64,000 nt of DNA from an uncultured bacterium (GTDB lineage Bacteria > Krumholzibacteriota > Krumholzibacteriia > Krumholzibacteriales > Krumholzibacteriaceae): NCBI GenBank assembly GCA_965369375.1, contig CBDUQN010000002.1:36966-100965 (forward strand), read 5' to 3'. The notes under the pieces were generated by a model, which searched no databases, was not told the origin of the DNA, and saw nothing but the letters and a program-made list of their open reading frames with translations. Shown here piece by piece: positions 4,682-23,136 of the stretch; position 1 is the first letter of the stretch, and each line of letters opens with the position of its first letter. A program made the translations under genes and the position numbers.

Positions 4682-5280
4682 GACCACCGATTATCGTTGT
4701 CACGGGCTCTATAGCCTCGGGAAAAACGCTTGTCGCGGATCTTCTCGCCGGCGCGGACGGAGCGCTCATCGACTGTGACTCGCTCGCGCACCGTGCCTAC
4801 GATGACGCCGAGCTAACAGAGCGCATCATCCGGAGATTCGGCGATTCGATCCTCACGCCTTCCGGGAAGATCTCGAGGGTTGAACTCGGAAGAATGGTTT
4901 TCTCCGATAGTCAACTCCTTGCGGCGCTCAACAGGCTCGTAGGGCCGTTCGTGGGGAGGATTATCGGCGAAAAGGTAAGGAGTTTGAGAACCGAGGCGCG
5001 ATATATTGTGCTTGATGCGGTGCTCTTTTTTCAGTATAAATTCAGGTTCAAAGTCGATCTCGTGGTGCTGACGGAAGCCTCCATGGAGACACGTCTCAGT
5101 CGAGTGATGCGCAGAGACGGGTTTTCGAGAAAGGAGGCTCTCATGCGAATTGAGCGGCAAAAATCCCTCGAGCGGGAATGGGCGCAGGCCGACATTACAA
5201 TACGCACGGACCAACCGAGGGAGAGGGTTATCGCCGCCGCGGCCGGCATACGCGACCGGTTCATCGCGCAGTACCTGTAG
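4678..5280 (+). CDS. coaE: Dephospho-CoA kinase
   Basis: P-loop IIVVTGSIASGKT near the N-terminus; about 200 aa. ATGA overlap with the polA stop (ATG 4678, polA TGA 4679-4681). Confidence 0.8.
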   Translation: MRPPIIVVTGSIASGKTLVADLLAGADGALIDCDSLAHRAYDDAELTERIIRRFGDSILTPSGKISRVELGRMVFSDSQLLAALNRLVGPFVGRIIGEKVRSLRTEARYIVLDAVLFFQYKFRFKVDLVVLTEASMETRLSRVMRRDGFSRKEALMRIERQKSLEREWAQADITIRTDQPRERVIAAAAGIRDRFIAQYL

Positions 5281-5296
5281 CTGAGCGGAGGAGTTC

Positions 5297-6416
5297 ATGG
5301 AATCGAGAATGACATCGAAGGAGATCGAGGAGCACATCCTCAAAATGGAGGAGCGGCTTTCGGCGCTGCAGGGTTACCTTTGACCTGGAAGGGATGGACA
5401 GGGACGCCGCTTCGATAGAGAAGCTGATGGAGGTGCCGGGCTTCTGGGACGATCGCGAAAAGGCCGAGTCGCTGGTTTCGAGACTCAAGAAACTGAGGGG
5501 CAGCCTCGATCCTTTCAGGGCGCTTCAGGAGGACCTCGAGGCGATTAAGGAGCTGATCGCTCTCGATTCCGAGGTAGAAGAGGAATCGCTCCACGGTGAG
5601 ATAACCGCCGAGCTCGGCACATTGGAACGCAGGCTCATCGACTTCGAGATGAAGGTGCTCCTCGGCGGGGAGCATGACGGCGACAACGCGCTGATGAACA
5701 TACATCCGGGCGCCGGGGGAACGGAATCGCAGGACTGGGCCGAGATGCTGGTGCGGCTCTACACGCGGTACCTCGAGCAGAACGGGTACAGTATCCGGAT
5801 CCTCGATCACCAGCCGGGCGATGAGGCGGGGATCAAGAACGCCACAATAGAGATAAAAGGCGAGTACGCATACGGCAGGCTTAAATCCGAGAGTGGTATT
5901 CACCGGCTCGTGCGCATTTCTCCATTTGACGCGAGTAAGCGGAGGCATACATCGTTCGCTTCCGTTTTCGTATATCCTGAAATCGATGACAAGGTCGAAG
6001 TAGAGATCATTCCGAATGATATTCGTGTCGACACATACCGCGCGAGCGGCGCAGGCGGACAACACGTCAACAAGGTTTCCTCCGCCGTTCGGATCACGCA
6101 TTTTCCGTCGGGGATCGTCGTGCAGTGCCAGAACGAGCGTTCCCAGCACCGCAACCGGGAAATGTGCATGAGGGTGCTCCGGTCGCGAATCTACGCCAAG
6201 CTCCTCGAGAAGGAGGAAGAGAAGAAGGCGAAGATCGCCGGAGAAAAAAAGGACATATCCTGGGGAAACCAGATACGCAGTTATGTATTTCAACCATATA
6301 CAATGGTGAAGGATCATCGCACCGGCGTACAAACGGGCAATATCCAGGCGGTGATGAACGGGGAGATCGACGAATTCATAGAAGGGTATCTGAGATGGAA
6401 GGAAAGGAAGTCGTAA
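5297..6416 (+). CDS. prfB: Peptide chain release factor 2 with programmed +1 frameshift: join(5297..5380,5382..6416)
   Basis: ORF0 MESRMTSKEIEEHILKMEERLSALQGYL ends at an in-frame UGA (5381-5383) in the context CUU UGA C. The +1 frame continues DLEGMDRDAASIEKL... and carries the RF2 motifs SPFDASKRRHTSFASVFVYPE and GGQHVN. Layout matches E. coli RF2 (LRGYL*DY). GGAGGAG precedes ATG 5297. Confidence 0.9.
5372..5383 (+). promoter_or_regulatory. prfB: prfB autoregulatory +1 frameshift site (GGU UAC CUU UGA, slippery CUU followed by UGA C, weak upstream SD-like AGGG)
   Basis: Read directly: cag ggt tac ctt tga cct. The stop lies 28 codons into the gene and the downstream +1 frame encodes the rest of RF2. 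Confidence 0.85.
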
Positions 6417-6417
6417 C

Positions 6418-7914
6418 GTGACGGGTGAGGACCCGAAATCAAACGCAGGGAAGGAACGGGATCAGCGTATACTCAAGCTCGACCAGCTCCGCGCCATGGG
6501 CATCAATCCATATCCATACCGTTTCGAGCGAACGCATCACATCGCTGCTGCGGTGGCTGGGGAGGAGAAACTCACATCGGCCGGGACCGAGCTCGTTCTC
6601 GCCGGCCGGGTGATGTCGCTGCGAAAGCACGGTCACGCGGCTTTCGGAAACATCAAGGACAGTACGGGTACGATCCAGTTCTATATCAAGGAGGACGAGA
6701 TCGGCGAGGCGGCGTTCGAGGCCTTCAAGCTCGTCGATGTCGGCGACATCATCGGGATCACCGGGGTGTTCTTCCGCACGCGGACAGAGGAGCTGACGCT
6801 CAGGATCGGAGTGCTCGAGCTTCTCTGCAAGGCACTCAGGCCGCTTCCCGAAAAGTACCACGGGCTGCAAAACAAGGAACTCCGGTATCGTCGCAGGTAT
6901 GTCGATCTCATTGTCAATGATGATGTGGTGCAAGTTTTTCTCATGAGATCGAAAATCATCGAGACCGTGAGACGGTTTCTGCTCGACAACGACTTCGTGG
7001 AAGTCGAAACGCCTATTCTGCAGCCGATATACGGCGGCGCCGTGGCGAGACCGTTCATGACCCATCACAACGCTCTCGGGATGGATCTGTATTTGCGCAT
7101 CGCGGATGAGCTCTATCTCAAGCGTCTCATAGCGGGCGGCATGGAACGCGTCTTCGAATTCGCCAAGGATTTCCGAAACGAGGGCATGGATCGATCTCAC
7201 AATCCCGAGTTTACCATGCTCGAATGCTACGCGGCCTACTGGGATTACAATGACATGATGAATTTCGTCGAGCAGATGTTTTCCGCTCTTTCGGTGGGAG
7301 TGCTGGGAACGAACAAGTTCGTCTATTCGGAAACCGAACTCGATTTCTCTCCGCCCTGGCGGAGGTTGAAATTCTTTGAAGCTCTCGAGACGGTGACGGG
7401 AGCGGATCTAGCCGGCGCCGATGAGAAGAAACTTGGACGTTTGGCGAAAGACGGAAATATCGATCTCGAAGGTGTAACGGGAAGAGCCGGCCTTCTCGAT
7501 GCTCTCTTTTCCGAGCTCGTCGAACCTACGCTCATCCAGCCCACCTTTGTAATGGATTATCCTGTGGAGCTCTCGCCGCTCGCGAAGCTGCATCGCGAGA
7601 CGGAGGGTCTTGTGGAGCGGTTCGAACCGTATATAGCCGGACTCGAAATCGGGAACGCGTTCAGCGAGCTCAATGACCCTCTCGATCAGCGTAACCGCTT
7701 CGAGCGGCAGAACGCGGCGCGCGCGGCCGGGGCTGCCGAGGCCCACCCGATCGATGAAGATTACCTCCGGGCGCTCGAGCACGGCATGCCGCCGACGGGA
7801 GGGCTCGGAATCGGAATAGACAGGGTGATCATGTTGCTCACCGACTCGCCTTCCATTCGGGACGTCATCCTCTTTCCCCAGATGCGCCCCGAGGAAGGCA
7901 GGGAGAAAGAGTGA
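6418..7914 (+). CDS. lysS: Lysyl-tRNA synthetase (class II)
   Basis: Anticodon-binding OB-fold N-terminus followed by a class II catalytic core (motifs around FEFAKDFRNEGMD and GGLGIGIDRVIMLLTD). GTG start 1 nt after the prfB stop. prfB-lysS is a conserved gene pair. Confidence 0.9.
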   Translation: MTGEDPKSNAGKERDQRILKLDQLRAMGINPYPYRFERTHHIAAAVAGEEKLTSAGTELVLAGRVMSLRKHGHAAFGNIKDSTGTIQFYIKEDEIGEAAFEAFKLVDVGDIIGITGVFFRTRTEELTLRIGVLELLCKALRPLPEKYHGLQNKELRYRRRYVDLIVNDDVVQVFLMRSKIIETVRRFLLDNDFVEVETPILQPIYGGAVARPFMTHHNALGMDLYLRIADELYLKRLIAGGMERVFEFAKDFRNEGMDRSHNPEFTMLECYAAYWDYNDMMNFVEQMFSALSVGVLGTNKFVYSETELDFSPPWRRLKFFEALETVTGADLAGADEKKLGRLAKDGNIDLEGVTGRAGLLDALFSELVEPTLIQPTFVMDYPVELSPLAKLHRETEGLVERFEPYIAGLEIGNAFSELNDPLDQRNRFERQNAARAAGAAEAHPIDEDYLRALEHGMPPTGGLGIGIDRVIMLLTDSPSIRDVILFPQMRPEEGREKE

Positions 7915-7919
7915 GATAG

Positions 7920-9176
7920 ATGCACTATTCTCTCTCGATAGCGCTGCGGTATCTGCGAAAGAGACGTCGCAGCGGTTTCGTTTCACGCGTCACGATGATC
8001 GCCGTCGGGGGAACCTTTGTCGGCGTCGCAACGCTCATTATCGTTCTCTCGCTCATGAATGGTTTCGAGAGCGAGCTCCGCAGCAGGATCATCGGATTCA
8101 ACACCCACGTTCTCGTCTTTGCGAGAACCCCGGGATCGTGGACCGGCATCGATTCGATCGCGGCCGAGATCGAATCGATACCGAATGTCGTCGCATCAGC
8201 GCCGTTCGTGAGGGGGGAAGCGCTGGTCTATTACGAGATGGTGCCCGGTGTCAGGGTGAAAACGAAAGGCGTGATCGTCAAGGGGGTGGAGCTCAACAGG
8301 GAACGGAATGTATCGACCGTGATTGATTCCATCTCGCCTCCCGTTCGATCGTTCATCGTGGATGGCTTCGAGGAGGACGAGGATCTGCCGGGGATCGTAT
8401 TCGGAAAGGATCTCGGCAAGGATTTGAGAATCTATCTCGGCGAGGTGGTAACGCTCGTAACCACCCCCGCGAAGCTCAGGGTCGGCAAGATCCATCCGCG
8501 GACGCGTGATTTCCGCGTTATAGGTTTCTTCAAGACGGGGGTCTACGAATTCGACTCCCGGTTCGCCTACATCGACATCGGAGAGGCGGAGAGCTTTTTC
8601 GATTTCGAGGCGGCGACACGGGGGCTCGGCATCAAGGTGGAGGATATCTACCAGGCCGATTCCGTCGACGAGGAAATAAATGAACGGCTGCAGTCTTACG
8701 TCTACGGCACGAACAACTGGATACAGCTCAACCGGAATCTCTTCAGTTATATAAAAGTCGAGAAGATATTGATGTTCCTGCTTCTCACCCTGATCATTCT
8801 CGTTGCCGCCTTCAATCTCGTCGGAATGTTGACGATGGTAATCATGGAGAAGCGCAGCGAGATCGGGATACTGCGGTCGATGGGCGCATCGTCCGGCGGG
8901 ATCATGTCGATATTCATGATCGAGGGAACGTTGATAGGCGTCATAGGGACTATAATGGGAATCGCTGCAGGGCTCGGTATCTGCGCGATTCTGAGTTCGG
9001 TGAAGATAGATCTTCCCGCGGATGTCTACTTTATCAATACCCTCCCCGTCCTCGTTCAGGGACAGGATATAGTGATAGTAAGTCTCGCGTCACTCTTCAT
9101 ATCGTTTGTCGCGGCGGTCTATCCGAGCTGGGAGGCGTGCCGTCTTATGCCGCTCGACGTTATCCGGTATGACTGA
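7920..9176 (+). CDS. Lipoprotein-releasing system permease, LolC/LolE (FtsX/MacB-type) family
   Basis: N-terminal LRYLRKRR plus TM segment, a large periplasmic domain and a C-terminal FtsX-like 3-TM bundle. 418 aa, immediately upstream of lolD. A single permease gene, as in non-gammaproteobacterial Lol systems. Confidence 0.75.
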   Translation: MHYSLSIALRYLRKRRRSGFVSRVTMIAVGGTFVGVATLIIVLSLMNGFESELRSRIIGFNTHVLVFARTPGSWTGIDSIAAEIESIPNVVASAPFVRGEALVYYEMVPGVRVKTKGVIVKGVELNRERNVSTVIDSISPPVRSFIVDGFEEDEDLPGIVFGKDLGKDLRIYLGEVVTLVTTPAKLRVGKIHPRTRDFRVIGFFKTGVYEFDSRFAYIDIGEAESFFDFEAATRGLGIKVEDIYQADSVDEEINERLQSYVYGTNNWIQLNRNLFSYIKVEKILMFLLLTLIILVAAFNLVGMLTMVIMEKRSEIGILRSMGASSGGIMSIFMIEGTLIGVIGTIMGIAAGLGICAILSSVKIDLPADVYFINTLPVLVQGQDIVIVSLASLFISFVAAVYPSWEACRLMPLDVIRYD

Positions 9177-9263
9177 GCGCCAATTCCGTTAAGCGCGGCT
9201 CGAGAGGCATGCTAGAGGGCGTCTTGCTATAAGTGGAGCGAGTAAGTATATTTAAATACATCT

Positions 9264-9950
9264 GTGTGTATCTTGAAGGCAGAAGACGTTTGGAAGACCT
9301 TTCCGGGCTCGAAGGGGACGATCGAGGTTCTGACAGGTTTGAACCTCTCGGTGCGCGAGGGTGAAATAGCTGTAATTATCGGAGATTCCGGGGTGGGCAA
9401 AAGCACGCTGCTTCATATTCTCGGCACGCTCGACGTGCCGGACAGGGGCAGGGTCTTCATCCAGGGCAGGGATCCACGGGAGTGCTCGAGCGCCGAACTC
9501 AATGAGATACGGAACCGTAACATTGGATTTATATTCCAGTTCCACTATCTTCTGCCCGAATTCGATGCGCTCGAAAACGTGATGATGCCGGCTATCCTGA
9601 GAGGCACCGGGAGGGAGGCGGCCGAGAAGCGGGCAACGATGCTTCTCGCCGAGGTCGGCCTTGAAGAGCGTGTTTCGCACCGGCCGGCAGAGCTCTCTGG
9701 AGGAGAGCAGCAGCGGATCGCCGTTGCGAGAGCCCTTATGAACGCGCCGGCGATCGTGCTGGCGGACGAGCCCTCGGGCAACCTCGACGAGCGCAACAGT
9801 GAAGGGCTGCACTCGTTGATTCAGGAGCTCAGCAGATCGAAGAAACAGACATTTGTCATCGTGACGCACAAGAAGGAATTGTTACTGAAAGCCGACAGGA
9901 CGCTCGTTTTACGAGAAGGGATTCTGCACGATATGGATGGCGCCGGGTAG
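9264..9950 (+). CDS. lolD: Lipoprotein-releasing ABC transporter ATPase
   Basis: Walker A GDSGVGKST, ABC signature LSGGEQQRIAVARAL, Walker B IVLADEPSGNLD. Start ambiguous (GTG 9264 or TTG 9273). Confidence 0.8.
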   Translation: MCILKAEDVWKTFPGSKGTIEVLTGLNLSVREGEIAVIIGDSGVGKSTLLHILGTLDVPDRGRVFIQGRDPRECSSAELNEIRNRNIGFIFQFHYLLPEFDALENVMMPAILRGTGREAAEKRATMLLAEVGLEERVSHRPAELSGGEQQRIAVARALMNAPAIVLADEPSGNLDERNSEGLHSLIQELSRSKKQTFVIVTHKKELLLKADRTLVLREGILHDMDGAG

Positions 9951-9958
9951 GAGCAATC

Positions 9959-10462
9959 ATGATTTGTCAGTTCTGCAAGACACGCGAAGCATCGATTCAC
10001 TTTACGAACGTCGTTGGCAAAAAGGTGAACAAGATTCACATCTGCCACCACTGCGCCGAGGAGAAGGGATTCGACTACCTGAAAAAGAGCAATTTCGCCA
10101 TGGGAGATCTGCTATCCGGCCTCTTCGAATCGTCCGCGGAGCAGATGGAATCGGGGAGCACGAAGAACAAGTGTCCCAACTGCGGAACGCACTTCGCCAA
10201 CTTCAAGAAGGTCGGAAGGCTCGGATGCTCGCAATGCTATGAATCATTCGAGGCCGAGTTGCTGCCGCTGCTGAGATCCATTCATGGCAACACGACCCAT
10301 ATGGGGAAGGTGCCGAAGCGTTTCTGCCGGCAGGTCAATTTGCACAGAAGGGTCAGGGAGCTTCAGGAAGAGCTCGGAAGAGCCGTCGAGCGTGAGGAAT
10401 ACGAGCGGGCCGCCGAGATCAGGGATGAGATCAAGAACTTAAGACAGTGCGAAAACAAGTGA
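9959..10462 (+). CDS. mcsA: McsA-like activator of protein arginine kinase (zinc-finger plus UVR motif protein)
   Basis: MICQFCKTREASIHFT...HICHHCAEE, second Cys cluster CPNCG...LGCSQCYESF, C-terminal UvrB/C-like EYERAAEIRDEIKNL. Close parallel to Bacillus McsA (MICQECHERPATFHFTKVV...). Confidence 0.8.
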   Translation: MICQFCKTREASIHFTNVVGKKVNKIHICHHCAEEKGFDYLKKSNFAMGDLLSGLFESSAEQMESGSTKNKCPNCGTHFANFKKVGRLGCSQCYESFEAELLPLLRSIHGNTTHMGKVPKRFCRQVNLHRRVRELQEELGRAVEREEYERAAEIRDEIKNLRQCENK

Positions 10463-10469
10463 GATCATC

Positions 10470-11531
10470 GTGATTGCATTTCAGGAACTGATACAGAAAC
10501 CATCCGCATGGCTCTCCGGCGAGAACGAGGAGGGTGAGATCGTTCTGTCCTGCAGGGTGCGTCTCGCGAGAAATCTCGACAAGCGTCCATTCACGCACGG
10601 TTCAAAACCCGAATTTTTGGGGGCGATTCGCGAGGAGATTGTTTCCGCCCTCAAGAAAACATCTTCGATGAAGAAGACGCTCGTAATAGACATGGATGCC
10701 ATCTCCGAGTCGGAGCGCATGGTCCTCGCCGAGCGGCACCTCATCACGAGAGACATGGTAAAGAACTACAAGAGCAGGGGGCTCGCGTCTATTGCAAGCG
10801 AAAAGCTGAGCGTTATGATAAACGAAGAGGATCATCTGAGACTTCAATCGGTTGAATCGGGGCTCTCTTTCAAGCAGGCCTTCGTTAGGATGAGCAAGCT
10901 CGATCGCGATCTCGACGAGCATCTCCAGTACGCGTTCAGCGAGAAACTCGGATTCCTCACGGCGTGTCCGACGAATGTCGGCACGGGGCTGCGTGTTTCG
11001 GCAATGGTTCATCTGCCCGGCCTCGTCCACAACAAGGATATCAGCCAAATAATAGATGGGCTGCGCAGCGTTCGCCTGACAGTGAGGGGGCTCTACGGAG
11101 AGGGTTCCGAGATCATGGGAAACTTCGTCCAGATCTCGAACAGCATCACGCTCGGTCTCTCTGAAGAGGACACGGTGAAGAACCTCGAATCGCACATCAG
11201 GAAGGTGCTGGAATTCGAAAAGAAAGCACGCGAGGTAATACTCACGAAGGCACGGAGCTTGCTGGAAGACAAGATTTGGAGGGCGTACGGTTTATGCAAA
11301 ACGGCCCGCATTGTAACTTCAAAAGAGGCAATGGGTTTGATTTCCGCCGTGCGCATGGGTGTCGGTCTGGGTGTTATTACGGATGTCAAATTGTCAGTTC
11401 TCAACCAGCTTCTGATCATGATACAGCCGATGCATCTGCAGCGGCTGCATAAGCGGGCGATGGGGCCGGAAGAGCGGGACATGGCCAGGGCTGATTATAT
11501 CCGTGCTATATTGGCAGAGAAGAGGCCTTGA
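10470..11531 (+). CDS. mcsB: Protein arginine kinase McsB (ATP:guanido phosphotransferase family)
   Basis: Phosphagen-kinase-like catalytic domain (CPTNVGTGLRVSAMVHLPGL). 353 aa, GTG start. Sits between mcsA and clpC as in the Firmicutes ctsR operon. Confidence 0.8.
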   Translation: MIAFQELIQKPSAWLSGENEEGEIVLSCRVRLARNLDKRPFTHGSKPEFLGAIREEIVSALKKTSSMKKTLVIDMDAISESERMVLAERHLITRDMVKNYKSRGLASIASEKLSVMINEEDHLRLQSVESGLSFKQAFVRMSKLDRDLDEHLQYAFSEKLGFLTACPTNVGTGLRVSAMVHLPGLVHNKDISQIIDGLRSVRLTVRGLYGEGSEIMGNFVQISNSITLGLSEEDTVKNLESHIRKVLEFEKKAREVILTKARSLLEDKIWRAYGLCKTARIVTSKEAMGLISAVRMGVGLGVITDVKLSVLNQLLIMIQPMHLQRLHKRAMGPEERDMARADYIRAILAEKRP

Positions 11532-11564
11532 AATGGCAGCTGATGGAAAGGACACTGGAGGAAT

Positions 11565-14012
11565 ATGAACGATAAGTTCACTGAACGAGTACGTAAGGTG
11601 ATCTACCTTGCCCGGGATGAGGCAAACAGGTTGCAGCATGATTATATCGGAACCGAGCATCTGCTTCTCGGAATCGTGCGGGAGGGCGATGGAATCGCGG
11701 CGAGGGTTCTGCAGAAGCTCGATCTCGACCTCGATCAGATCCAGCAGGCCATAGAGCATATCGTCAAGCCAAGCGGCGGGACGCTCATGCTCGGTGAGAT
11801 CCCCCTGACGCCGAGAGCCAAGCGGGTTCTCGAGCTCTCCGTGGAGGAGGCGAGACTCCTCGGTCACAACTATGTCGGAACCGAGCATCTGCTTCTCGGT
11901 CTCATCCGTGAAGGTGACGGTGTTGCGGCGAGGGTTCTGCTCGAACTCGGTGTCGACCGAAAGCGCGTTCGTGAAGAGATCATGAAGATACTCAACCAGG
12001 GCGGAGGCGGCCCGAGAGGAGCAAAGGCGCGAAGGGAGAAGAGCGAATCCCCCACGCTCGACCAGTTCGGCCGCGATTTGACCAAGCTCGCCGGTGACAA
12101 CAAGCTCGATCCGATTACCGGGAGGGATCAGGAGATCAGCCGTGTCATTCAGATTCTCTGTCGCAGGAAAAAGAACAACCCCGTGCTTATCGGAGAGCCG
12201 GGCGTCGGCAAGACCGCCATAGTCGAGGGTCTTGCCCAGGGGATCATGGAAAACAAGGTCCCCGAGCTGCTCAGGGGCAAGAGGATAACGACACTCGACC
12301 TTGCATCTATTGTAGCTGGAACGAAATACAGGGGACAGTTTGAGGAACGCTTGAAGACGATCATCAACGAGATTAGTGAAAACGACCAGATCATAATCTT
12401 CATCGACGAGATACATACCATCGTCGGCGCCGGCGGCGCGGAGGGTGCGATCGATGCATCGAACATGCTCAAACCCGCGCTCGCGCGCGGTGAGATCCAG
12501 TGCATCGGCGCGACGACACTCAACGAGTACCGCAAGTACATCGAGAAGGACGGGGCGCTCGAGCGCAGGTTCCAGCCGATTCTCATCAATCCGCCGACGG
12601 AGGAAGAAACGATACAGATAATTATGGGCCTGCGTGATAAATACGAGGCCCACCACCGGACGAAATTCACCGACGAGGCGGTACGGCAGGCAGTTTATCT
12701 CTCCCAGCGGTACATCCAGGGGAGGTTCCTGCCGGACAAGGCGATCGACGTGATAGACGAAGCGGGCGCCAGGGCGAGGTTATCGGTTACGACGGTGCCC
12801 GATTCGCTCCGTGATCTCGAGCGCAAAATCGAAGAGATTTCGAAAGAGAAGGAATCGTCCATTCAGGCGCAGGAGTTCGAGAAGGCTGCGTCATTCAGGG
12901 ATGAGGAGAAGGAACTCCGTAAGATATTGAAGGATAAACACCGCGAGTGGAGTGAATCGAGGCAGGAGAACGAGTCGGAAGTCACTGAGAAGGACATTGC
13001 CTGCGTTATTTCCGCCATGACGGGGATTCCCGTTTCCGATGTCGAGGAGGAGGAGACGGCAAAACTTCTCAATCTCGAAAACGAGCTCCGCAATCGTGTT
13101 GTCGGCCAGGAGGAGGCGCTCAAGGCGATAGCTACGTCCGTGAGGCGAAACCGCGCAGGTCTGCGGGATCCGCGCCGGCCGATAGGCTCGTTCATGTTCC
13201 TCGGGCCCACGGGAGTAGGAAAAACAGAGCTAGCGAGGACGTTGTCGGCTATGCTCTTCGAGAGCGAAGATGCCCTCATTCAGATAGACATGTCGGAGTA
13301 TATGGAGAAATTCGCGATTTCGCGGCTCATAGGCGCCCCTCCGGGATATGTCGGTTACGAGGAGGGCGGGCAGCTCACAGAGAAGGTGCGGCGCAAACCA
13401 TACTCGGTCGTTCTGCTCGACGAGATCGAAAAAGCGCATCCCGATGTATTCAACCTCCTGCTGCAGATTCTCGAAGACGGCAGTCTCACCGATTCCTTCG
13501 GGCGACGGGTTGATTTCAAGAATACCGTTCTCATCATGACCTCCAACGTCGGCGCGAAGGCGATCAAGGGCACGAGGGGTCTCGGATTCATTTCCGAGGG
13601 AGTGGACAGCGGATATCAGCAGATGAAGTCGCGGGTTCTCGAGGAAGCGAAAAAGCTTTTCAATCCGGAGTTTATCAACAGGCTCGACGAGTTCATCGTA
13701 TTCCGGCACCTCGACCGCGAAAATCTGATGCAGATCATCGATATCCTGCTGAGAGACCTCTACACGAGGCTCGAATCCCAGAATATCGATTTCGAAATTG
13801 CAGTCTCGGCGAAGGAGTTCATACTGGAAAAGGGATACAATCCCGAACTGGGAGCGCGGCCGCTGAAGCGGGCAATCCAGAAATGTCTCGAGGATCCCCT
13901 GAGCGAGAAGATGCTCAGCGGACAGATCAGCCGCAAAAACAAGCTTTTGATAACGGCGAAACCGGGCGATGAGAACTTGAGCTTCGAGACGGAAAAAACG
14001 GTATCCTCCTAG
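11565..14012 (+). CDS. clpC: ATP-dependent Clp protease ATP-binding subunit ClpC
   Basis: Two Clp_N repeats, two AAA+ modules (GEPGVGKTAIVEGLA, GPTGVGKTELARTL) and a UVR-like linker. 815 aa. GGAGGAAT RBS before the ATG. Confidence 0.9.
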   Translation: MNDKFTERVRKVIYLARDEANRLQHDYIGTEHLLLGIVREGDGIAARVLQKLDLDLDQIQQAIEHIVKPSGGTLMLGEIPLTPRAKRVLELSVEEARLLGHNYVGTEHLLLGLIREGDGVAARVLLELGVDRKRVREEIMKILNQGGGGPRGAKARREKSESPTLDQFGRDLTKLAGDNKLDPITGRDQEISRVIQILCRRKKNNPVLIGEPGVGKTAIVEGLAQGIMENKVPELLRGKRITTLDLASIVAGTKYRGQFEERLKTIINEISENDQIIIFIDEIHTIVGAGGAEGAIDASNMLKPALARGEIQCIGATTLNEYRKYIEKDGALERRFQPILINPPTEEETIQIIMGLRDKYEAHHRTKFTDEAVRQAVYLSQRYIQGRFLPDKAIDVIDEAGARARLSVTTVPDSLRDLERKIEEISKEKESSIQAQEFEKAASFRDEEKELRKILKDKHREWSESRQENESEVTEKDIACVISAMTGIPVSDVEEEETAKLLNLENELRNRVVGQEEALKAIATSVRRNRAGLRDPRRPIGSFMFLGPTGVGKTELARTLSAMLFESEDALIQIDMSEYMEKFAISRLIGAPPGYVGYEEGGQLTEKVRRKPYSVVLLDEIEKAHPDVFNLLLQILEDGSLTDSFGRRVDFKNTVLIMTSNVGAKAIKGTRGLGFISEGVDSGYQQMKSRVLEEAKKLFNPEFINRLDEFIVFRHLDRENLMQIIDILLRDLYTRLESQNIDFEIAVSAKEFILEKGYNPELGARPLKRAIQKCLEDPLSEKMLSGQISRKNKLLITAKPGDENLSFETEKTVSS

Positions 14013-14167
14013 AGTGGGGGAACCTTCCTTCCCGCAAAATCGTTTAATGTAAAGAGAAGCCTAAAACCGGGCGTATGGGAGCATTCTGCATGTGCCTTTT
14101 ACGTTTGCAAAGGATATGGGCCTATGCTAGCATATACCGAATTTTTTGCAAGTCGAATAGGTGGAAT

Positions 14168-16420
14168 ATGATTGCAAAGGCGATGATGATCATTGCGGCG
14201 GGTCTGCTTCTCGCTTCCGCCGGTAATGCTATCGAAATCGGATCGATAGAGGTAGAGGGGAACATCAATGTTTCCGAGGAGAAGATTCTGTCCATCTTCG
14301 CGATCCGTGTGGGCGAGGAATTCAAACCCGAGCGGGTTTCTTCGGGCGTCAGGGCGCTCTTCAACACGAAAGATTTCTCCGATATCGAGGTTCGGTACGT
14401 CGAGGAGGAGGGCAAAGCGGTACTGATCGTCGTCATCAGGGAGTACCCGCGGGTGAAAGAGGTGCGGTTCATCGGCAACGATCATATCGATGATGATGAT
14501 CTGAGAAACAAGATCCTTCTCCGGGAGGGTTTCTTCGCCAGGCCGGCCATGATGACCAGGGATGTTGCGACGATCAAGGGGATGTACGAGGAGAAGGGAT
14601 ATAACAAGGCGGAGATAGAGATCAAGCAGACACCGAAGGAGAAGGAGCACAAGGTAATCGTTACATACGCAGTCGATGAGGGTGAAAAGGTCAAGATACG
14701 CAACATCGACTTTCTCGGCAACGGGGCGATCAGCTCCAAGGAGCTGCGCAAGGCGATGGAGAGCAAGACCGACAACTGGCTGCGGGGCGGAGAGTACAAA
14801 GCGGCCGTGCTCGAGGAGGATCTCAAGAAGATCAAGCAGCTCTATGCCAATCAGGGCTATCTCGATGCCGTGGTAATGCTCGGAGAGCAGGTGGAGATCG
14901 ACGGCGGAAAACACGTCGATATCTTTATCGAGATCGACGAGGGCAGGCCCTATTACGTAGGCGAGGTTACCTGGTCGGGCAATACGATAGTCAGCGACGA
15001 AGAGATCGAAGCGGTGATCGCGCTATACGAGGGGGATCGCTATTCGGTCGAGTACGTCGAGATGAATCAGATGGCGATAAACAGCAAATATATGGAGCAG
15101 GGGTACATATGGAGCAGGGTCATCCCGGAGCAGGAGGTTCGCCGGGGGAAGATCGACCTGCATCTCAAGGTCGTCGAGAACAATCCCGCCCATATACACG
15201 AGATAAAGATCAGCGGCAACACCAAGACGTTCGAAAATATCATTCGAAGGGAACTGGGAGTCTATCCGGGAGACAGATTCATACTCAGTGACGTCCAGCG
15301 AAGCCTCAGGGACATCTTCGCGCTCGGTTATTTCAACGGGCCTCCGCAGGTCGGGACGGAACCGGTGAATGAGGAAGGAGATATCAATCTCCTCATCTCC
15401 GTGGAGGAGAAACAGACCGGGTACTTCAGAATGGGCGCGGGGTTTTCGCAGCTCAATTCGATTACGGGTTTCTTCGGCGTAACCGAGAACAATTTCCTCG
15501 GCCGGGGCAAGCGGGTATCGATCGACTGGGAGTTTGGCAAATACCGTCAGAATCTGAACCTGTCATACTCCGAGCCGTACTTCCTCGGCACGAACAACTC
15601 GATGACCGTCTCGATTTTCAACTGGATACAGAACAGGGTCCAGCAGCAGTTTTACACCGACCGGCGCAAGGGTTTCTCGGTGCAGCTCGGGCGGCCCTTT
15701 CCGCTCCTCGACTACACGAGGATATTCACGAGCTACCGCTTAGAGAATGTCAACCTGTATGATTTCTCACCGCTTTATCCTTTATCGGGTTCACTTCGCC
15801 ACACCGACTGGCCGCTCAACAAGAGCAGTCTGCTCGTCAGCATTGCGCGAAACTCGACGGATAATCCCTTTCATCCGACGAGGGGGTCGATCACGAACCT
15901 CTCGGCGGAATTCACCGGAGGACCGCTCGGAGGCAATGTCGATTTCATGAGATACTCGGCCAGCTTTTCCTGGTTCAGAAGCATATTATGGAGATTTACG
16001 TATCACATGGCCGTCAAGGGCGCCGTTATCGACAGGTTTGCCGGTGGCGCCCCGGTCGAGGAATTCGAGAAGTACCGCCTCGGTGGAAACCGCCGGTATG
16101 CCTTGCGCGGATACGATTTCTACGAGGTGGTTCCCGAGGGGAATGATATATACGTGGGAGGGCGTTTCTTTTCAATATTCACGCAGGAGGTGCTTTTTCC
16201 CTTTACACCGGCGATTTACGGGCTCGTATTCTACGATGTCGGAAACACATGGAACTCGTTCAGCGGGGCGCAGCTCTCGAACATGAGACGGGGTTTGGGG
16301 TTCGGCATCAGGTTGGAAATGCCCGGCATCGGAAACCTTGGATTTGATTATGGTTACGGTTTTGACAAACGCGGCGGCGGAGCGTGGGAACCGCACTTCG
16401 CCTTCGGAACTTTCTTTTAA
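14168..16420 (+). CDS. bamA: Outer membrane protein assembly factor BamA (POTRA repeats plus Omp85 beta-barrel)
   Basis: Signal peptide MIAKAMMIIAAGLLLASAGNA, multiple POTRA-like repeats, C-terminal barrel ending in an aromatic residue (HFAFGTFF). Followed by skp-lpxD. ATG 14168 chosen over the longer TTG/ATG-extended ORF at 14075. Confidence 0.9.
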   Translation: MIAKAMMIIAAGLLLASAGNAIEIGSIEVEGNINVSEEKILSIFAIRVGEEFKPERVSSGVRALFNTKDFSDIEVRYVEEEGKAVLIVVIREYPRVKEVRFIGNDHIDDDDLRNKILLREGFFARPAMMTRDVATIKGMYEEKGYNKAEIEIKQTPKEKEHKVIVTYAVDEGEKVKIRNIDFLGNGAISSKELRKAMESKTDNWLRGGEYKAAVLEEDLKKIKQLYANQGYLDAVVMLGEQVEIDGGKHVDIFIEIDEGRPYYVGEVTWSGNTIVSDEEIEAVIALYEGDRYSVEYVEMNQMAINSKYMEQGYIWSRVIPEQEVRRGKIDLHLKVVENNPAHIHEIKISGNTKTFENIIRRELGVYPGDRFILSDVQRSLRDIFALGYFNGPPQVGTEPVNEEGDINLLISVEEKQTGYFRMGAGFSQLNSITGFFGVTENNFLGRGKRVSIDWEFGKYRQNLNLSYSEPYFLGTNNSMTVSIFNWIQNRVQQQFYTDRRKGFSVQLGRPFPLLDYTRIFTSYRLENVNLYDFSPLYPLSGSLRHTDWPLNKSSLLVSIARNSTDNPFHPTRGSITNLSAEFTGGPLGGNVDFMRYSASFSWFRSILWRFTYHMAVKGAVIDRFAGGAPVEEFEKYRLGGNRRYALRGYDFYEVVPEGNDIYVGGRFFSIFTQEVLFPFTPAIYGLVFYDVGNTWNSFSGAQLSNMRRGLGFGIRLEMPGIGNLGFDYGYGFDKRGGGAWEPHFAFGTFF

Positions 16421-16493
16421 AAGAGGTTTCGCGTGCGACGAGATTCAGCTATCATTAACGAGCTCTATGAGAGTATCCAAAAGGAGGCGTACG

Positions 16494-17027
16494 ATGAAGT
16501 TAGCGTCAAGAGTGATTCTCGCGGCCTGTCTCTGTGCCTTTTTACCGATTCATGCGGCCATAGCGCAGGAGATCAAGCTGGGTTACATTGATACTGTCAA
16601 GATCTTTGCGGAGTTCAAGGAAACGATCGAGGCCGAAGAGCTATACAAGAAGGAAGTAGAGGCCTGGAAGAAAGAAGCAGCCGAAATGGAAACGGAACTC
16701 GCCAATCTCCGTGAGGAGATTCAGAGCCAGAGCCTCATGCTCAGCGAGGAGAAGCTCGCGGAAAAGAAACTCGTATTCGAACAGAGGCTCAAGGAGTATC
16801 AGACGTACATGACGGATGTCTTCGGTGAGGGTGGACAGGCCGAACGCAGAAACAGAGAGCTCACACAGCCGATAGTAGAGAGGATAAACAGCGTTATCGC
16901 AGAGATGGCAGAGGCACAGGGGTACGATGTCATCCTCGATTCGGCGCAGGGAAATATCATCTATGCAAAAAAAGAACTCGATCTGACCGAGTTCGTCCTC
17001 GAGAAATTGCGCACCGAGCTGGAATAG
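16494..17027 (+). CDS. skp: Periplasmic chaperone Skp (OmpH)
   Basis: Signal peptide MKLASRVILAACLCAFLPIHA followed by a coiled-coil-rich, K/E-rich roughly 150 aa domain. AAGGAGG RBS 6 nt before ATG 16494. Canonical position between bamA and lpxD. Confidence 0.8.
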   Translation: MKLASRVILAACLCAFLPIHAAIAQEIKLGYIDTVKIFAEFKETIEAEELYKKEVEAWKKEAAEMETELANLREEIQSQSLMLSEEKLAEKKLVFEQRLKEYQTYMTDVFGEGGQAERRNRELTQPIVERINSVIAEMAEAQGYDVILDSAQGNIIYAKKELDLTEFVLEKLRTELE

Positions 17028-17063
17028 GGCTCATCCAGCGGGTGGACCGGCTTTTCTTTGCTA

Positions 17064-17093
17064 TTTACAATGTTCGCTCTTGAACGGTACAAT
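17064..17093 (+). promoter_or_regulatory. Candidate sigma70-type promoter upstream of lpxD (TTTACA-N18-TACAAT)
   Basis: Hexamers read directly in the 123-nt skp-lpxD gap. Weak call. Confidence 0.3.
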
Positions 17094-17150
17094 CCCTGAA
17101 AATCGTGTCAATAGCCGGACGTATCGCGGGTGCTTTAGTGGAATAGACTA

Positions 17151-18212
17151 ATGATTACTTACTCGCTCAAAGAATTAGCTGAAGCTGTCGGCGGTGAGAT
17201 TGTCGGCGAGCGCGAGGTGAAGATAACGGGTGTGGCGGGGATCAGGGAGGCGAAGGAGGGGGAGATCACCTTTCTTGCCAACCCGAAGTACGAACCGTAT
17301 CTCGCGACCACCAGGGCTTCCGCCGTTATTGCGGACAAGGACGGCAGCTCCCCGCGCCCCATCCTCAGGGTCGAGAATCCCTACCTTGCCTTCCTGAAGG
17401 TCGTAACCCTCTTTACGGAGCGTGCCTTCGATCTCTATCCCCGCGGCATTGACACAGCCGCGATTATTGCGGAAACCGCGAAACTGGGCAAGGATGTCTC
17501 GATCGGCGCCTATTCCGTGATAGAGGAGCGTGTCGAGATCGGGGACAGGGTCACCATTCGGCCACTCGTCTCTATCTGTGATGACGTCACGATCGGCGAG
17601 GATTGCCTGATCTATCCGCACGTGACGATCCGGGAGCGGTGTGAGATAGGCAACAGGGTGATCATTCACTCAGGCGCCGTTGTTGGAAGCGACGGATTCG
17701 GGTACGCAAAGGACGGTAATAAGCATCACAAGATACCCCAGATAGGGATAGTGCGCCTGGAGGATGATGTCGAGATAGGAGCCAATGCTACGATCGACAG
17801 GGCTACGACCGGTGTAACCCTCATCAAGCACGGTTCGAAAATAGACAATCTCGTTCAGATAGCGCATAATGTCATTGTGGGAGAAAACTCGATTCTTGCG
17901 GCGCAGGTCGGTGTCTCGGGGAGTACCGAGCTGGGCAAGAACGTTGTCCTCGCCGGCCAAGCGGGGCTGGTCGGTCATATCAGGATCGGTGACGGGGCTA
18001 TGGTGGGTGCCCAGGGCGGCGTCACGAAATCAATACCGCCGAACACGAGGGTTTCCGGCTACCCGGCACGGGAGCATGGATTCGCCCGGAAGATCTATGC
18101 GGCGTCGACGCGTCTGCCCGAGCTTCTCAAAGAGTTCAGAAAGCTCCAGAAGAGAGTCGAGGCGCTGGAGAAAGAAACAGGTAAGGATGGTTCGCCAGCA
18201 GAGAACGTTTAA
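17151..18212 (+). CDS. lpxD: UDP-3-O-(3-hydroxyacyl)glucosamine N-acyltransferase
   Basis: N-terminal LpxD domain followed by left-handed beta-helix hexapeptide repeats; about 353 aa. Correct cluster position. Confidence 0.9.
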   Translation: MITYSLKELAEAVGGEIVGEREVKITGVAGIREAKEGEITFLANPKYEPYLATTRASAVIADKDGSSPRPILRVENPYLAFLKVVTLFTERAFDLYPRGIDTAAIIAETAKLGKDVSIGAYSVIEERVEIGDRVTIRPLVSICDDVTIGEDCLIYPHVTIRERCEIGNRVIIHSGAVVGSDGFGYAKDGNKHHKIPQIGIVRLEDDVEIGANATIDRATTGVTLIKHGSKIDNLVQIAHNVIVGENSILAAQVGVSGSTELGKNVVLAGQAGLVGHIRIGDGAMVGAQGGVTKSIPPNTRVSGYPAREHGFARKIYAASTRLPELLKEFRKLQKRVEALEKETGKDGSPAENV

Positions 18213-19497
18213 GGATTCGTTTACCTATGAAGGTATCGGGCTTCACACGGGCAAGAAGGTGAAGACCGTCTATCACCCCGCCCCGCCCGATACGGGGATA
18301 ATCTTCAAGCGCGTGGATCTCGATCCGGCAATCGAGATTCCGGCGCGCGTCAATTATGTTCATGAAGAGGAGATCCGGCGCAACACGACGATAACGAAGC
18401 ATGGAATCAATATTCACACCGTCGAGCATATCCTGGCCACCGCTTCCGGCCTGCAGGTCGACAACATGATCGTCGAGATCGACGCGGATGAGCCGCCCGA
18501 GCCGAAGGACGGCAGTTGCGCGCCGTTTGTCGAGGCCTTTCAGAAGATCGGATTCAAGAATCAGGGAGTGCCGACGAGGTTTGTGAAGATTGCGAGACCG
18601 ATCACCTTTTCAGAGAACGGCTGCGAGCTCGTCGCCCTGCCGTATGACGGATTCAGGGTCAGTTTCACCATTGATTATGAAAACAAGCATATCGGAACGC
18701 AATTTGCCTCTTTCGAAATCAATCCCGAGGTTTTCATCAAGGAGATCGCCCCGGCGCGGACCTTCGCGCTCATGTCGGATGTGGAGATGCTCAAGTCCCA
18801 GGGTTTGATCAAGGGAGGAAGCCTCGAGAACGCGATCGTCGTCGACACGGACGGCATTCTCAACAAGGAACCGCTTCGCTTCTCGGATGAATTCGTGCGT
18901 CACAAGATACTCGATCTCCTAGGCGACCTGACACTCGTCGGAGCGCCGATCGAGGCTCATATCATTGCGCTGCGCTCCGGACACATCAGCAATCTGAAAT
19001 TCGCGCGGCTGCTCTCGGATGAAGCTGAGAACAGGGCAAAGATGTCTGTCGTCGGCGGCGGAAAAATCTGGGATATCAACGTGATCCAGCAGATTATGCC
19101 GCACCGGTATCCGTTTCTCCTCGTCGACCGGATACTCGAGCTCGAAGACAAGAAACGAGTCGTGGGAATAAAAAATGTGACGATCAATGAACCGTACTTC
19201 CAGGGTCATTTTCCGGGACATCCGATAATGCCGGCTGTTCTCATCATTGAATCGATGGCCCAGGTCGGGGGGATTCTGCTGCTTTCGAGCGTTGACAGGC
19301 CCGAGAATTACCTCGTTTACTTTATCGGAATCAACAAGGCCAAGTTCCGCAGGCCCGTCTTTCCGGGGGACCAGGTGCGGTTCGAGCTCGATATGCTCAT
19401 GCTGAGACGGCGCTTCTGCAAGATGAAGGGTGTGGCGTATGTTGACGGGCAGGTCGTGGCCGAAGCGGAGCTCACATCCTCGATCGTAAATCGCTGA
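18187..19497 (+). CDS. lpxC-fabZ: Bifunctional UDP-3-O-acyl-GlcNAc deacetylase / 3-hydroxyacyl-ACP dehydratase (LpxC-FabZ fusion)
   Basis: N-terminal LpxC (FTYEGIGLHTGKKV...HTVEHILATASGL...) joined to a C-terminal FabZ hot-dog fold (INEPYFQGHFPGHPIMPAVLIIESMAQ). ATG 18187 with a GGTAAGG RBS, overlapping the lpxD end by 26 nt. The ORF track start at 17869 is an over-extension. Confidence 0.9.
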   Translation: MVRQQRTFKDSFTYEGIGLHTGKKVKTVYHPAPPDTGIIFKRVDLDPAIEIPARVNYVHEEEIRRNTTITKHGINIHTVEHILATASGLQVDNMIVEIDADEPPEPKDGSCAPFVEAFQKIGFKNQGVPTRFVKIARPITFSENGCELVALPYDGFRVSFTIDYENKHIGTQFASFEINPEVFIKEIAPARTFALMSDVEMLKSQGLIKGGSLENAIVVDTDGILNKEPLRFSDEFVRHKILDLLGDLTLVGAPIEAHIIALRSGHISNLKFARLLSDEAENRAKMSVVGGGKIWDINVIQQIMPHRYPFLLVDRILELEDKKRVVGIKNVTINEPYFQGHFPGHPIMPAVLIIESMAQVGGILLLSSVDRPENYLVYFIGINKAKFRRPVFPGDQVRFELDMLMLRRRFCKMKGVAYVDGQVVAEAELTSSIVNR

Positions 19498-19507
19498 GCA
19501 AGGAGTC

Positions 19508-20284
19508 ATGCTGACCGAGATACACGATACGGCCATAGTTCATCCCGGCGCTCGGCTGGGCGAAAATGTTTCGATCGGTCCCTATTCCGTCATCGGAGAG
19601 CATGTCGAGATAGGGGATAATTGCACCATCGGGAGCTCGATCCTCCTGGACGGCAACACGGTGATGGGCGCAGATAACCGTGTCTTTCACGGCGCTTCGA
19701 TCGGGACGGTTCCGCAGGATCTCAAATACCGCGGCGCGAAATCTTCTCTCGTGATCGGTGACAGAAACGTTTTCCGTGAATTTGTTACGATCAACATAGC
19801 CACGAATGAAGGGGAGCGCACGTACATAGGTAATAATAATCTTCTCATGGCGTACGTCCACGTGGCCCACAATTGCTGGATAGGGGACAACGTCGTTCTC
19901 GCGAATTCGGTGAATCTCGCAGGCCATGTAACGATATACGATTATGTGATCGTCGGCGGAGTTGTTCCGATTCACCAGTTTGTTTCTATCGGCGCGCACT
20001 CGATCATCGGCGGCGGAAGCCGGGTCCCGAAAGATATTCCGCCCTTTATCAAGGTGGCGGGCAATCCCCCCCGAGTAGGCGGACTGAACAGTATCGGCCT
20101 CAAGCGGCGGGGATTCACTATTGAACAACGTTCATTGATCAAGAAGGCTTTCTGTATGCTGTACCGTGAAGACCTGAATGTCACGCAGGCGGTAGGAAAG
20201 ATAGAAATGGAGCTCCCGCAAACGCCGGAGATCGAAATGCTCGTTGATTTTGTTCGAAAGTCCAAGCGGGGCATCACGAAATAG
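19508..20284 (+). CDS. lpxA: Acyl-ACP--UDP-GlcNAc O-acyltransferase
   Basis: Hexapeptide-repeat beta-helix and a C-terminal helical domain; 258 aa. Cluster position. Confidence 0.9.
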   Translation: MLTEIHDTAIVHPGARLGENVSIGPYSVIGEHVEIGDNCTIGSSILLDGNTVMGADNRVFHGASIGTVPQDLKYRGAKSSLVIGDRNVFREFVTINIATNEGERTYIGNNNLLMAYVHVAHNCWIGDNVVLANSVNLAGHVTIYDYVIVGGVVPIHQFVSIGAHSIIGGGSRVPKDIPPFIKVAGNPPRVGGLNSIGLKRRGFTIEQRSLIKKAFCMLYREDLNVTQAVGKIEMELPQTPEIEMLVDFVRKSKRGITK

Positions 20285-20326
20285 CTTTTTCCATGAACAT
20301 TGCGTAGAGGAATCCTCTAAGGGGCT

Positions 20327-21280: not shown

Positions 21281-21289
21281 GAGAAGGGT

Positions 21290-22456: not shown

Positions 22457-23136
22457 AGATACCCTTTCATATGGGGCTTACGAGCTTTTTCGGGTCGTTG
22501 CTCATACGTTTGCTCGGCGCCACCTGGCGGATCGAGTGGCGTGGGAAGGAGCATCTCGAGCGTGCGCGGCGGATGTCGTCCCGCGTGATATTTGTCTTCT
22601 GGCACGGCCGGCTTCTCGTATTGAGCTTTTCCCACCGGCACAGGAGGATCCAGGTGCTCGCCTCGGAGCATCCCGACGGCGATCTCATGGGAAGAACGAT
22701 TCAATGGCTCGGGTTCGGCCATCTGAAAGGATCTTCTTCCAGGGGTGGAGCGCGCGCCCTGCGTGAGCTCGCACATGTTCTCAGGCAGGGGCTCGAGGTA
22801 GGTTTGACGGTAGACGGTCCGCGGGGTCCCCGGGGTGTGATGCAGCAGGGAGCGATCGAGCTGAGCCGGATAGCGGACTCGGCGATCGTGCCCGTTTCGA
22901 ACTCCGCCCGGCCGCGCCGCCTCTTCTCCTCCTGGGACCGGTTTCAGCTACCGGGGTTGTTTGCCAAAGTGGTGATCTCATACGGCGAACCGATTCTCGT
23001 TCCCGCCGATGCGGACACGAAGGCACGGAAAACACTGAAGTCGACACTCGAGGAGCGGTTGAACAGGCTCACGGCGGAGTTGGACGGCGCCCTCGGCTAC
23101 CGCGGATCGGAAATATGGCCTCATGAGAATAGTTGA
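22453..23136 (+). CDS. DUF374-domain protein (LPLAT-like), commonly encoded beside lpxB/lpxK
   Basis: About 227 aa with a conserved VFVFWHGRL motif. GTGA overlap with the lpxB stop. ATG 22471 is an alternative start. Confidence 0.55.
   Translation: MKIPFHMGLTSFFGSLLIRLLGATWRIEWRGKEHLERARRMSSRVIFVFWHGRLLVLSFSHRHRRIQVLASEHPDGDLMGRTIQWLGFGHLKGSSSRGGARALRELAHVLRQGLEVGLTVDGPRGPRGVMQQGAIELSRIADSAIVPVSNSARPRRLFSSWDRFQLPGLFAKVVISYGEPILVPADADTKARKTLKSTLEERLNRLTAELDGALGYRGSEIWPHENS

Follow-up and report, generated by a model that had tools for sequence, protein, structure and literature searches.

The locus described here lies in a stretch of 64,000 nucleotides (nt) from an uncultured bacterium of the Krumholzibacteriaceae (contig CBDUQN010000002.1, positions 36,966 to 100,965, of assembly GCA_965369375.1). 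The whole of this stretch is referred to as the window, and all positions are given in its coordinates. Positions 9264–14012 span exactly four genes, lolD through clpC, with mcsA and mcsB between them (Table 1). An earlier note on this DNA had proposed a Firmicutes-style McsA–McsB–ClpC module for arginine phosphorylation within a lolCD operon, and open reading frame (ORF) calls and family assignments agree that these are four real, co-directional genes. On the same criteria they belong to a single co-directional run at 4648–24286, in the order coaE, prfB, lysS, lolC/E-like, lolD-like, mcsA, mcsB, clpC, bamA, skp, lpxD and an lpxC–fabZ fusion, which ends in lpxA, a GFO/IDH oxidoreductase gene, lpxB, a DUF374 gene and lpxK; bamD (YfiO), nadD and polA lie just upstream. 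A complete McsA–McsB–ClpC set stands directly behind lolD in a diderm with lipopolysaccharide (LPS) and BamA, and its catalytic, phospho-arginine (pArg)-binding and ClpP-docking residues are intact. The genes are tightly packed, as had been claimed, with gaps of 87 nt between lolC and lolD, 8 nt between lolD and mcsA (not 9 nt, as first given), 7 nt between mcsA and mcsB and 33 nt between mcsB and clpC. GC content of the locus is 0.54–0.56, the same as in the flanks.

Table 1. Genes and promoter-like elements from lysS to bamA, in window coordinates
Feature	Position	Strand	Evidence
lysS (lysine-tRNA ligase)	6418..7914	+	NCBIfam NF001756, 676.7 (cutoff 468); conserved upstream member of the gene string
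lolC/E-like permease, single copy, MacB-type	7920..9176	+	Pfam MacB_PCD and FtsX; TIGR02212 (lolCE), 337.8 (cutoff 362.45)
Sigma-70-like promoter before lolD (predicted): TTGCTA, 17-nt spacer, TATATT	9224..9252	+	Consensus scan
lolD-like ABC ATPase, first gene of the unit, GTG start	9264..9950	+	PF00005; TIGR02211 (LolD), 277.3 (cutoff 307.75)
mcsA, arginine kinase activator	9959..10462	+	Full-length match to B. subtilis McsA (PDB 8WTB_B), E = 5e-39
mcsB, protein arginine kinase	10470..11531	+	PF00217, 1.8e-64; NF002194, 396.5 (cutoff 385)
clpC, AAA+ unfoldase	11565..14012	+	1035 bits to B. subtilis ClpC, residues 3–802
Promoter-like block before bamA: TTTGCA, 18-nt spacer, TAGCAT	14104..14133	+	Conserved in relatives
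bamA, start probably at 14168 (revised from 14075)	14168..16420	+	TIGR03303, 490 (cutoff 297)

The identification of McsB held up against hidden Markov models, with a strong match to PF00217 (ATP-gua_Ptrans) and a score above the cutoff of NF002194 ("protein arginine kinase"). The protein has 353 residues, is aligned from residue 11 and is without the N-terminal domain of phosphagen kinases. It can be aligned over its full length to the Geobacillus and Bacillus McsB structures (6FH1 and 8WTB, E = 7e-78), whereas phosphagen kinases match in the catalytic domain only (E of 5.6e-47 or weaker). Numbering of Bacillus subtilis McsB was mapped by means of the mutagenesis primers quoted in an eLife paper and an alignment of 42 sequences. 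The NEEDH motif at 118–122 and the catalytic C166 are kept, aligning to 119–123 and C167 in B. subtilis, which rules out the lack of catalytic residues that the earlier note had named as grounds for doubt; the catalytic E-E-D-H residues and the cysteine are invariant throughout a sample of 40 diderm McsBs. Also intact is the pArg receptor site (S284, R336, D337 and R340, equal to B. subtilis S285, R337, D338 and R341). Close homologues were already annotated with PF27454 (McsB_C). The best homologues are 97, 90 and 87% identical, the next 71% or lower, and those of the top homologues that are named come from metagenome-assembled genomes (MAGs) of Candidatus Krumholzibacteriota, where they are labelled "protein arginine kinase" by the source.

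McsA aligns to its structural counterpart over residues 1–163. Residue roles were taken from the paper on the McsA–McsB structure, and all eight zinc cysteines are present, with C3, C6, C29 and C32 at the first site and C72, C75, C90 and C93 at the second. Residues 131–163 form the UVR coiled coil (PF02151, 1.5e-9). ClpC (815 residues) scores 759 bits against ClpB, to be compared with the value for ClpC in Table 1, and contains two Clp_N repeats, a short UVR-type M-domain at residues 419–453 and two AAA+ modules. Both Clp_N repeats carry a GTEH motif, with E31 in IGTEH and E107 in VGTEH. E32 and E106 of B. subtilis ClpC, to which E31 and E107 are equivalent, reportedly serve in pArg binding. 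That ClpC-type N-domains have dual pArg sites is confirmed by the literature. An LGF loop is aligned to the VGF loop through which B. subtilis ClpC docks to ClpP; ClpB is not known to have such a loop.

To place the locus among its relatives, a McsB profile scan was carried out with one genome per species; 596 relatives were found, the best 80 were kept, and neighbouring genes were identified by tblastn with the window proteins. The first set of loci, made up of reference genomes and close relatives, numbers 83. The recurrence of lolD–mcsA–mcsB–clpC in related MAGs, suggested as a check by the earlier note, was strongly borne out: lolD is directly upstream of mcsA in all Krumholzibacteriota (5/5) and Gemmatimonadota (17/17), in the single loci from Eisenbacteria, Binatia and Ignavibacteria (1/1 each) and in 4 of 6 unnamed MAGs. 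Two Pfam-annotated relatives (L001 and L002) have the identical order bamD–nadD–polA–coaE–prfB–lysS–lolC–lolD–mcsA–mcsB–clpC–bamA–skp–lpxD–lpxC/fabZ, and two others (L004 and L005) match over coaE–lpxD by tblastn; relatives at 53–69% McsB identity include CP070727.1, a genome of 4.1 Mb. A second layout, with lolD and one intervening gene before mcsA, was seen in Planctomycetia (2/2), Kiritimatiellia (1/1), Verrucomicrobiota (2/4) and Omnitrophota (3/4). The intervening gene in this Planctomycetota–Verrucomicrobiota–Chlamydiota (PVC) group and in Omnitrophota encodes a class IV (IlvE-like) aminotransferase (Aminotran_4), and its candidacy as a regulator or phosphatase was therefore rejected. 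In the other Planctomycetota mcsAB is free-standing in all 29 loci with enough room to judge. A divergent 545-residue gene beside mcsAB of Pirellulales was considered as GroEL and rejected, as it encodes anthranilate synthase component I; the other neighbours there are unrelated.

The junction of lolD and mcsA is close: across phyla, 17 of 18 loci show stop and start codons that overlap or are separated by no more than 37 nt. In Gemmatimonadota the lolC/lolD, mcsA/mcsB and clpC/bamA pairs are packed or overlapping as well. The string lysS–lolC–lolD–(ilvE)–mcsA recurs across phyla, and lolD–mcsA–mcsB–clpC is usually followed by bamA–skp–lpxD, with bamA after clpC in Krumholzibacteriota, Gemmatimonadota (15/15), Binatia and Eisenbacteria. 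Complete McsA–McsB–ClpC sets were found in Krumholzibacteriota, Gemmatimonadota, Eisenbacteria, Binatia, Ignavibacteria, Verrucomicrobiota, Kiritimatiellia, Omnitrophota and Planctomycetota. Most of these nine diderm groups have the set packed closely after lolD, with bamA following it except in PVC and Omnitrophota, and in none of the nine was CtsR found at the mcsAB–clpC locus. The arrangement is therefore not special to this genome, being common to at least five phyla directly and to PVC and Omnitrophota with one inserted gene. Because the layout recurs in many diderm phyla, it is best regarded as inherited and under-described and not as a one-off.

The earlier note had reported neither a ctsR gene nor a CtsR operator upstream of lolD or mcsA, and both statements stood up to wider searches. 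A Pfam scan of 60 ORFs in the window gave no CtsR, ClpP or low-molecular-weight phosphatase; the place before mcsA is taken by lolD. Six-frame tblastn searches of the window and the 83 first-set loci, with CtsR, ClpP and YwlE probes, returned nothing below E = 0.3. The CtsR and ClpP probes can be considered valid because they detected homologues in other loci: the CtsR probe matched 36 ctsR-type metagenome loci at 34–72% identity, and the ClpP probe matched one locus at 62%. Three ctsR genes were confirmed by Pfam, one of which had been missed by the CtsR probe. The CtsR box RGTCAAANANRGTCAAA had one match with three mismatches in the 64 kb, inside bamA, where 2.9 are expected by chance. For the operator, defined as the tandem heptad (A/G)GTCAAA-NAN-(A/G)GTCAAA, there was no match with two or fewer mismatches in the window, and of four such matches in 1.33 Mb (the window and the 83 first-set loci) none lies upstream of lolD, mcsA or clpC. 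One metagenome locus, L118, carries a clpP gene at 1444–2007 (62% to the Escherichia coli ClpP probe), about 3 kb upstream of lysS, in the order lysS–lolC–lolD–(one extra gene)–mcsA–mcsB–clpC; no other clpP was seen in the neighbourhood of the 163 loci.

An independent set of loci came from a metagenome scan for which Geobacillus and Bacillus McsB served as seeds, and 58 of them had enough sequence before mcsA to be judged. In 37 of these ctsR is upstream of mcsA (36 by tblastn, immediately before it, and L145 by Pfam only), in 5 lolD is directly upstream, and in 10 lolD is followed by one further gene; an aminotransferase gene is directly upstream of mcsA in at least two of the remaining 6. 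No locus (0/58) has both ctsR and lolD upstream of mcsA. These counts indicate that the slot 5' of mcsA holds either ctsR or lolD, the latter with or without ilvE. In B. subtilis, dusB, lysS, ctsR and mcsA are consecutive protein-coding genes, and lysS–ctsR was considered as an ancestral linkage. However, of the ctsR-type metagenome loci, 17 have 6 kb or more of upstream sequence, and none of these carries lysS there; several have a paralogue of elongation factor G (EF-G) instead. The B. subtilis adjacency is therefore not general and is a lead only.

Two further observations were made at ctsR-type loci. In low-GC loci the EF-G paralogue is directly before ctsR (L113), one ORF away from it (L099) or upstream of mcsA (L103), ctsR having been detected in L099 and L113; lysS is missing from that position. 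Among the loci closest to Geobacillus McsB (L088–L098), at least 8 of the 10 Bacillales-like contigs that reach ctsR end about 0.5–2 kb upstream of it. An rRNA operon is located upstream of ctsR in B. subtilis, and these contig ends would fit such a repeated operon.

The predicted promoter before lolD is conserved. Across seven Krumholzibacteriota loci the -10 element TATATT is invariant, and a TTGC-type -35 element is found at an essentially kept spacing (16–17 nt in L005, the most distant). The rest of the lolC–lolD gap has diverged, to a mean column identity of 53%, and the promoter region of the seven loci contains no conserved inverted repeat or operator-like block. The GTG start of lolD, which aligns with the ATG starts of relatives, is 11 nt past the -10 element, so the leader would be very short. 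Use of canonical sigma-70 hexamers by this host is indicated by a perfect consensus promoter (TTGACA, 17 nt, TATAAT) at 46919–46948. Downstream of it are a 43-codon ORF (ATG at 46986, with an AGGAGG ribosome-binding site) and a lipoprotein-like ORF at 47126–47568, with no Pfam family and no Rfam match. An hsp20 gene and lon, overlapping by 4 nt, are found at 47768–50619 behind a sigma-70-like promoter (TTGACT, 17 nt, TATTCT), and no CIRCE-like (controlling inverted repeat of chaperone expression) or CtsR-like element was seen by eye upstream of them. A heat-shock operator shared by the lolD and hsp20–lon promoters was considered and rejected, as inspection by eye showed no CIRCE-like or other common element. 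A scan of the whole window at Rfam gathering thresholds gave nothing.

A second promoter-like block is found before bamA. The block CCTTTTA..TTTGCA..CTATGCTAGCAT is common to L001, L002 and L005, and the remainder of the clpC–bamA spacer cannot be aligned. The start of bamA is probably the ATG at 14168, judging by the sequence that follows: from this codon MIAKAMMIIAAGLLLASAGNA reads as a signal peptide, GGTGG precedes it, and relatives align only from about query residue 55. With the revised start the spacer is 155 nt (14013–14167). In relatives GC-rich hairpins directly follow clpC; a terminator after clpC in the window was rejected, as the spacer folds no more stably than shuffled sequence (z = 0.35). 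The likeliest transcription unit would thus comprise the promoter, lolD, mcsA, mcsB and clpC, possibly with read-through from lysS–lolC and into bamA, and bamA is predicted to have a promoter of its own.

The lolC/E and lolD names are those of the best NCBIfam matches, although both scores are just under their cutoffs. The MacB/Lol-type architecture of the permease and ATPase is certain, and the pair would probably act in lipoprotein release. Further along the run, the description of the host as an LPS/BamA diderm with BamA and Skp was upheld, and its "full lipid A synthesis" in part: lpxA, lpxB, lpxC, lpxD and lpxK are in the window, and neither lpxH/lpxI nor waaA was recognised in its 64 kb. 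The lpxC and fabZ domains are fused in the ORF at 17869–19497 (Pfam LpxC at residues 111–382, FabA-like at 410–534), for which a true start near 18190 is probable; in the relatives L001 and L002 the two are called as a fusion too (436–441 residues). The GFO/IDH/MocA oxidoreductase gene (20327–21280) between lpxA and lpxB is present in L002 too, and the DUF374 gene between lpxB and lpxK is at 22453–23136. The start of skp is probably later than 16338. At prfB (5297–6416) a canonical programmed +1 frameshift site, CTT TGA C, is found at 5378; a short upstream ORF begins at ATG 5297, and the listed ORF at 5394–6416 is the downstream frame only. Outside the run, a BshC-like gene, a PIG-L deacetylase gene and a GT4 glycosyltransferase gene stand in a row at 27731–31262 and resemble a bacillithiol-type bshC–bshB–bshA string, a trait usually linked to Firmicutes.

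On this evidence the locus probably encodes a canonical McsA–McsB–ClpC module for pArg-dependent protein quality control that works without CtsR and is set in an old housekeeping and envelope gene string. Several observations weigh against this reading. R194 of B. subtilis McsB, the auto-phosphorylation of which locks a closed octamer, is Q193 here, and at this position the 40 diderm McsBs have K in 23, R in 8 and Q in 6. The closed-octamer gating of B. subtilis may therefore not apply, whereas activation and oligomerisation driven by pArg would still do so, as suggested by the intact receptor site; the R194 lock is part of the B. subtilis mechanism and not of membership of the McsB family. 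McsA scores 170 bits against NF053706 (PrRKinActvMcsABac), below the cutoff of 210, and is a divergent member of its family; the name of the model suggests that it was built on Bacillus-type sequences. Neither clpP nor a gene for a YwlE-type pArg phosphatase was found in the window or the 83 first-set loci, and both are assumed to be elsewhere in the genome. The taxon labels used here are the titles of MAG records. Finally, the lolD–mcsA junction, down to overlapping codons across phyla, is kept more than most functionally unrelated neighbours are, which leaves some room for a functional link to Lol/Bam.

Three alternatives were weighed against such a module. The mcsB product has the ATP-guanido phosphotransferase fold that is also found in arginine kinases, and clpP is not nearby, as would be seen if the protein were a phosphagen (arginine) kinase acting on small molecules, or else a pseudo-kinase, with ClpC as a ClpP-independent disaggregase. 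The chance of this is close to negligible in view of the end-to-end match to McsB structures, which phosphagen kinases do not share, the McsB-specific C-terminal domain with its pArg receptor site, the complete zinc ligands of the adjoining McsA and the LGF loop kept by ClpC. The view of the genome is limited to 64 kb, which leaves some room for control of the lolD–clpC unit by a CtsR-type repressor encoded at a distance. Such control is nonetheless highly improbable, because the operator searches found nothing at lolD, mcsA or clpC, a probe that finds ctsR in 36 ctsR-type loci detected no CtsR-like sequence in the 83 loci, and no operator-like element is conserved around the lolD promoter.

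Recent horizontal gain from Firmicutes, with insertion into a lolCD–bamA cluster, is suggested by the fact that the system is best known from that phylum, and would be one way to take the wording "Firmicutes-style". McsB identity, however, is 41–46% between Bacilli and every diderm group, equal to the mean of 40–51% between diderm phyla. In a neighbour-joining tree of 42 McsBs, unrooted and with Firmicutes represented by two sequences, the Krumholzibacteriota, most Gemmatimonadota, the Verrucomicrobiota with Kiritimatiellia and most Planctomycetota form groups. The phylum-wise tree, the even identities and a GC content matching the flanks all argue against recent import, as do an insertion point that is the same in several phyla and the matching order there of the essential neighbours lysS, lolCD and bamA. 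Import is therefore very unlikely, and the implication of it in "Firmicutes-style" is not supported. The data are an indication, though not proof, that the module is old and was largely inherited vertically, and CtsR looks like a lineage-specific addition to this older core in the ctsR-type loci, which are Bacillus-like and presumably from Firmicutes.

A further question is whether the gene order has functional meaning. The pArg–ClpCP pathway might be co-expressed with LolD, near BamA, Skp and Lpx, since it serves envelope biogenesis, for instance by clearing unexported precursors of lipoproteins or outer membrane proteins from the cytosol or by controlling a rate-limiting enzyme such as LpxC. 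Such coupling, which the earlier note had thought possible, is an inference from gene order, and we consider it unlikely. In its favour are the adjacency of lolD and mcsA, often with overlapping codons, in at least five phyla, nearly kept in PVC and Omnitrophota; the Krumholzibacteriota promoter, which ties lolD and not lolC to mcsAB–clpC; and the position of bamA after clpC in four groups. Against this, an unrelated aminotransferase gene separates lolD from mcsA in PVC and Omnitrophota, most Planctomycetota have mcsAB apart from lolD, and Chlamydia has it apart from clpC. The conserved string also includes genes unconnected with the envelope (coaE, prfB, lysS and polA), and a separate promoter is predicted for bamA here. 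The tolerated ilvE-like insertion and the free-standing mcsAB of most Planctomycetota indicate that adjacency is not mechanistically required. A bolder proposal, that lysS–lolCD–mcsAB–clpC–bamA–skp–lpx is an ancestral diderm string in which pArg–ClpCP was tied to outer-membrane biogenesis, seems to us quite improbable; if it were true, the ctsR–mcsA–mcsB–clpC operon of Firmicutes would be a remnant left after loss of the envelope genes and gain of a repressor.

The nearest known system is the ctsR–mcsA–mcsB–clpC operon of B. subtilis and Geobacillus, a class III heat-shock operon of the pArg–ClpCP pathway, which encodes the same three proteins in the same order. The two are alike in the NEEDH motif, cysteine and pArg pocket of McsB, in the zinc fingers and coiled coil of McsA and in the two pArg sites, short M-domain and ClpP loop of ClpC. 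They differ in that the present locus has no ctsR or CtsR operator, lolD in the place of ctsR, a promoter without a recognisable operator and glutamine at the position of R194, and in that its host is an LPS/BamA diderm. The pArg degron pathway that the earlier note suggested for a diderm is not new in principle, with a precedent in Chlamydia trachomatis, which carries mcsAB and whose ClpC with ClpP2P1 degrades pArg-casein in vitro (PMC10128030). That organism is likewise a diderm without CtsR, with McsAB orthologues and a ClpC that reads pArg, but its mcsAB is unlinked from clpC and lolD, whereas here the genes are contiguous and within the lolCD…bamA string. Mycobacterial ClpC1P1P2 also has a ClpC-type N-domain with dual pArg sites and no CtsR (PMC9604228), but mycobacteria have no known McsB or McsA, both of which are present and adjacent here. 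Gram-negative homologues in some Proteobacteria are mentioned in the paper on the McsA–McsB structure, with the remark that their activity was never identified.

In the module as we read it, McsA would activate McsB through its two zinc fingers and coiled coil, and McsB would phosphorylate arginines of aberrant or damaged cytosolic proteins. The marked proteins would be captured by the N-domain of ClpC in its two pArg pockets, and ClpC would unfold them and feed them to a ClpP encoded elsewhere, docked by the LGF loop. Expression of lolD–mcsA–mcsB–clpC would be driven by the conserved operator-free sigma-70-like promoter upstream of lolD, and that of bamA by its own promoter. Given a housekeeping promoter without an operator, control of the kinase would most likely be post-translational, through McsA, auto-phosphorylation and pArg allostery. 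The place of the genes beside lolCD and bamA–skp–lpx would reflect a gene order inherited in many diderm phyla, with ctsR in the ctsR-type loci occupying the slot held in diderms by lolD or lolD–ilvE. Gene identities, conserved residues, spacing, promoter conservation and synteny across phyla are observed directly; enzymatic activity, partnership with ClpP, co-transcription, constitutive expression and substrates are predicted from sequence.

In the literature, the use of arginine phosphorylation to mark proteins for degradation is regarded as peculiar to Gram-positive bacteria. The proteins and their order are known from Bacillus, and the first gene and the regulation differ here. How widespread and constant the arrangement is appears to be under-described; no paper on the broad distribution of mcsAB–clpC or its linkage to lolD was found in a literature search of incomplete coverage. 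The presence of the module in so many diderm groups prompts one to ask what controls the kinase where CtsR is lacking. It also offers a concrete hypothesis, that cytosolic pArg proteolysis may be linked to envelope assembly, which could be approached in culturable carriers of the operon.

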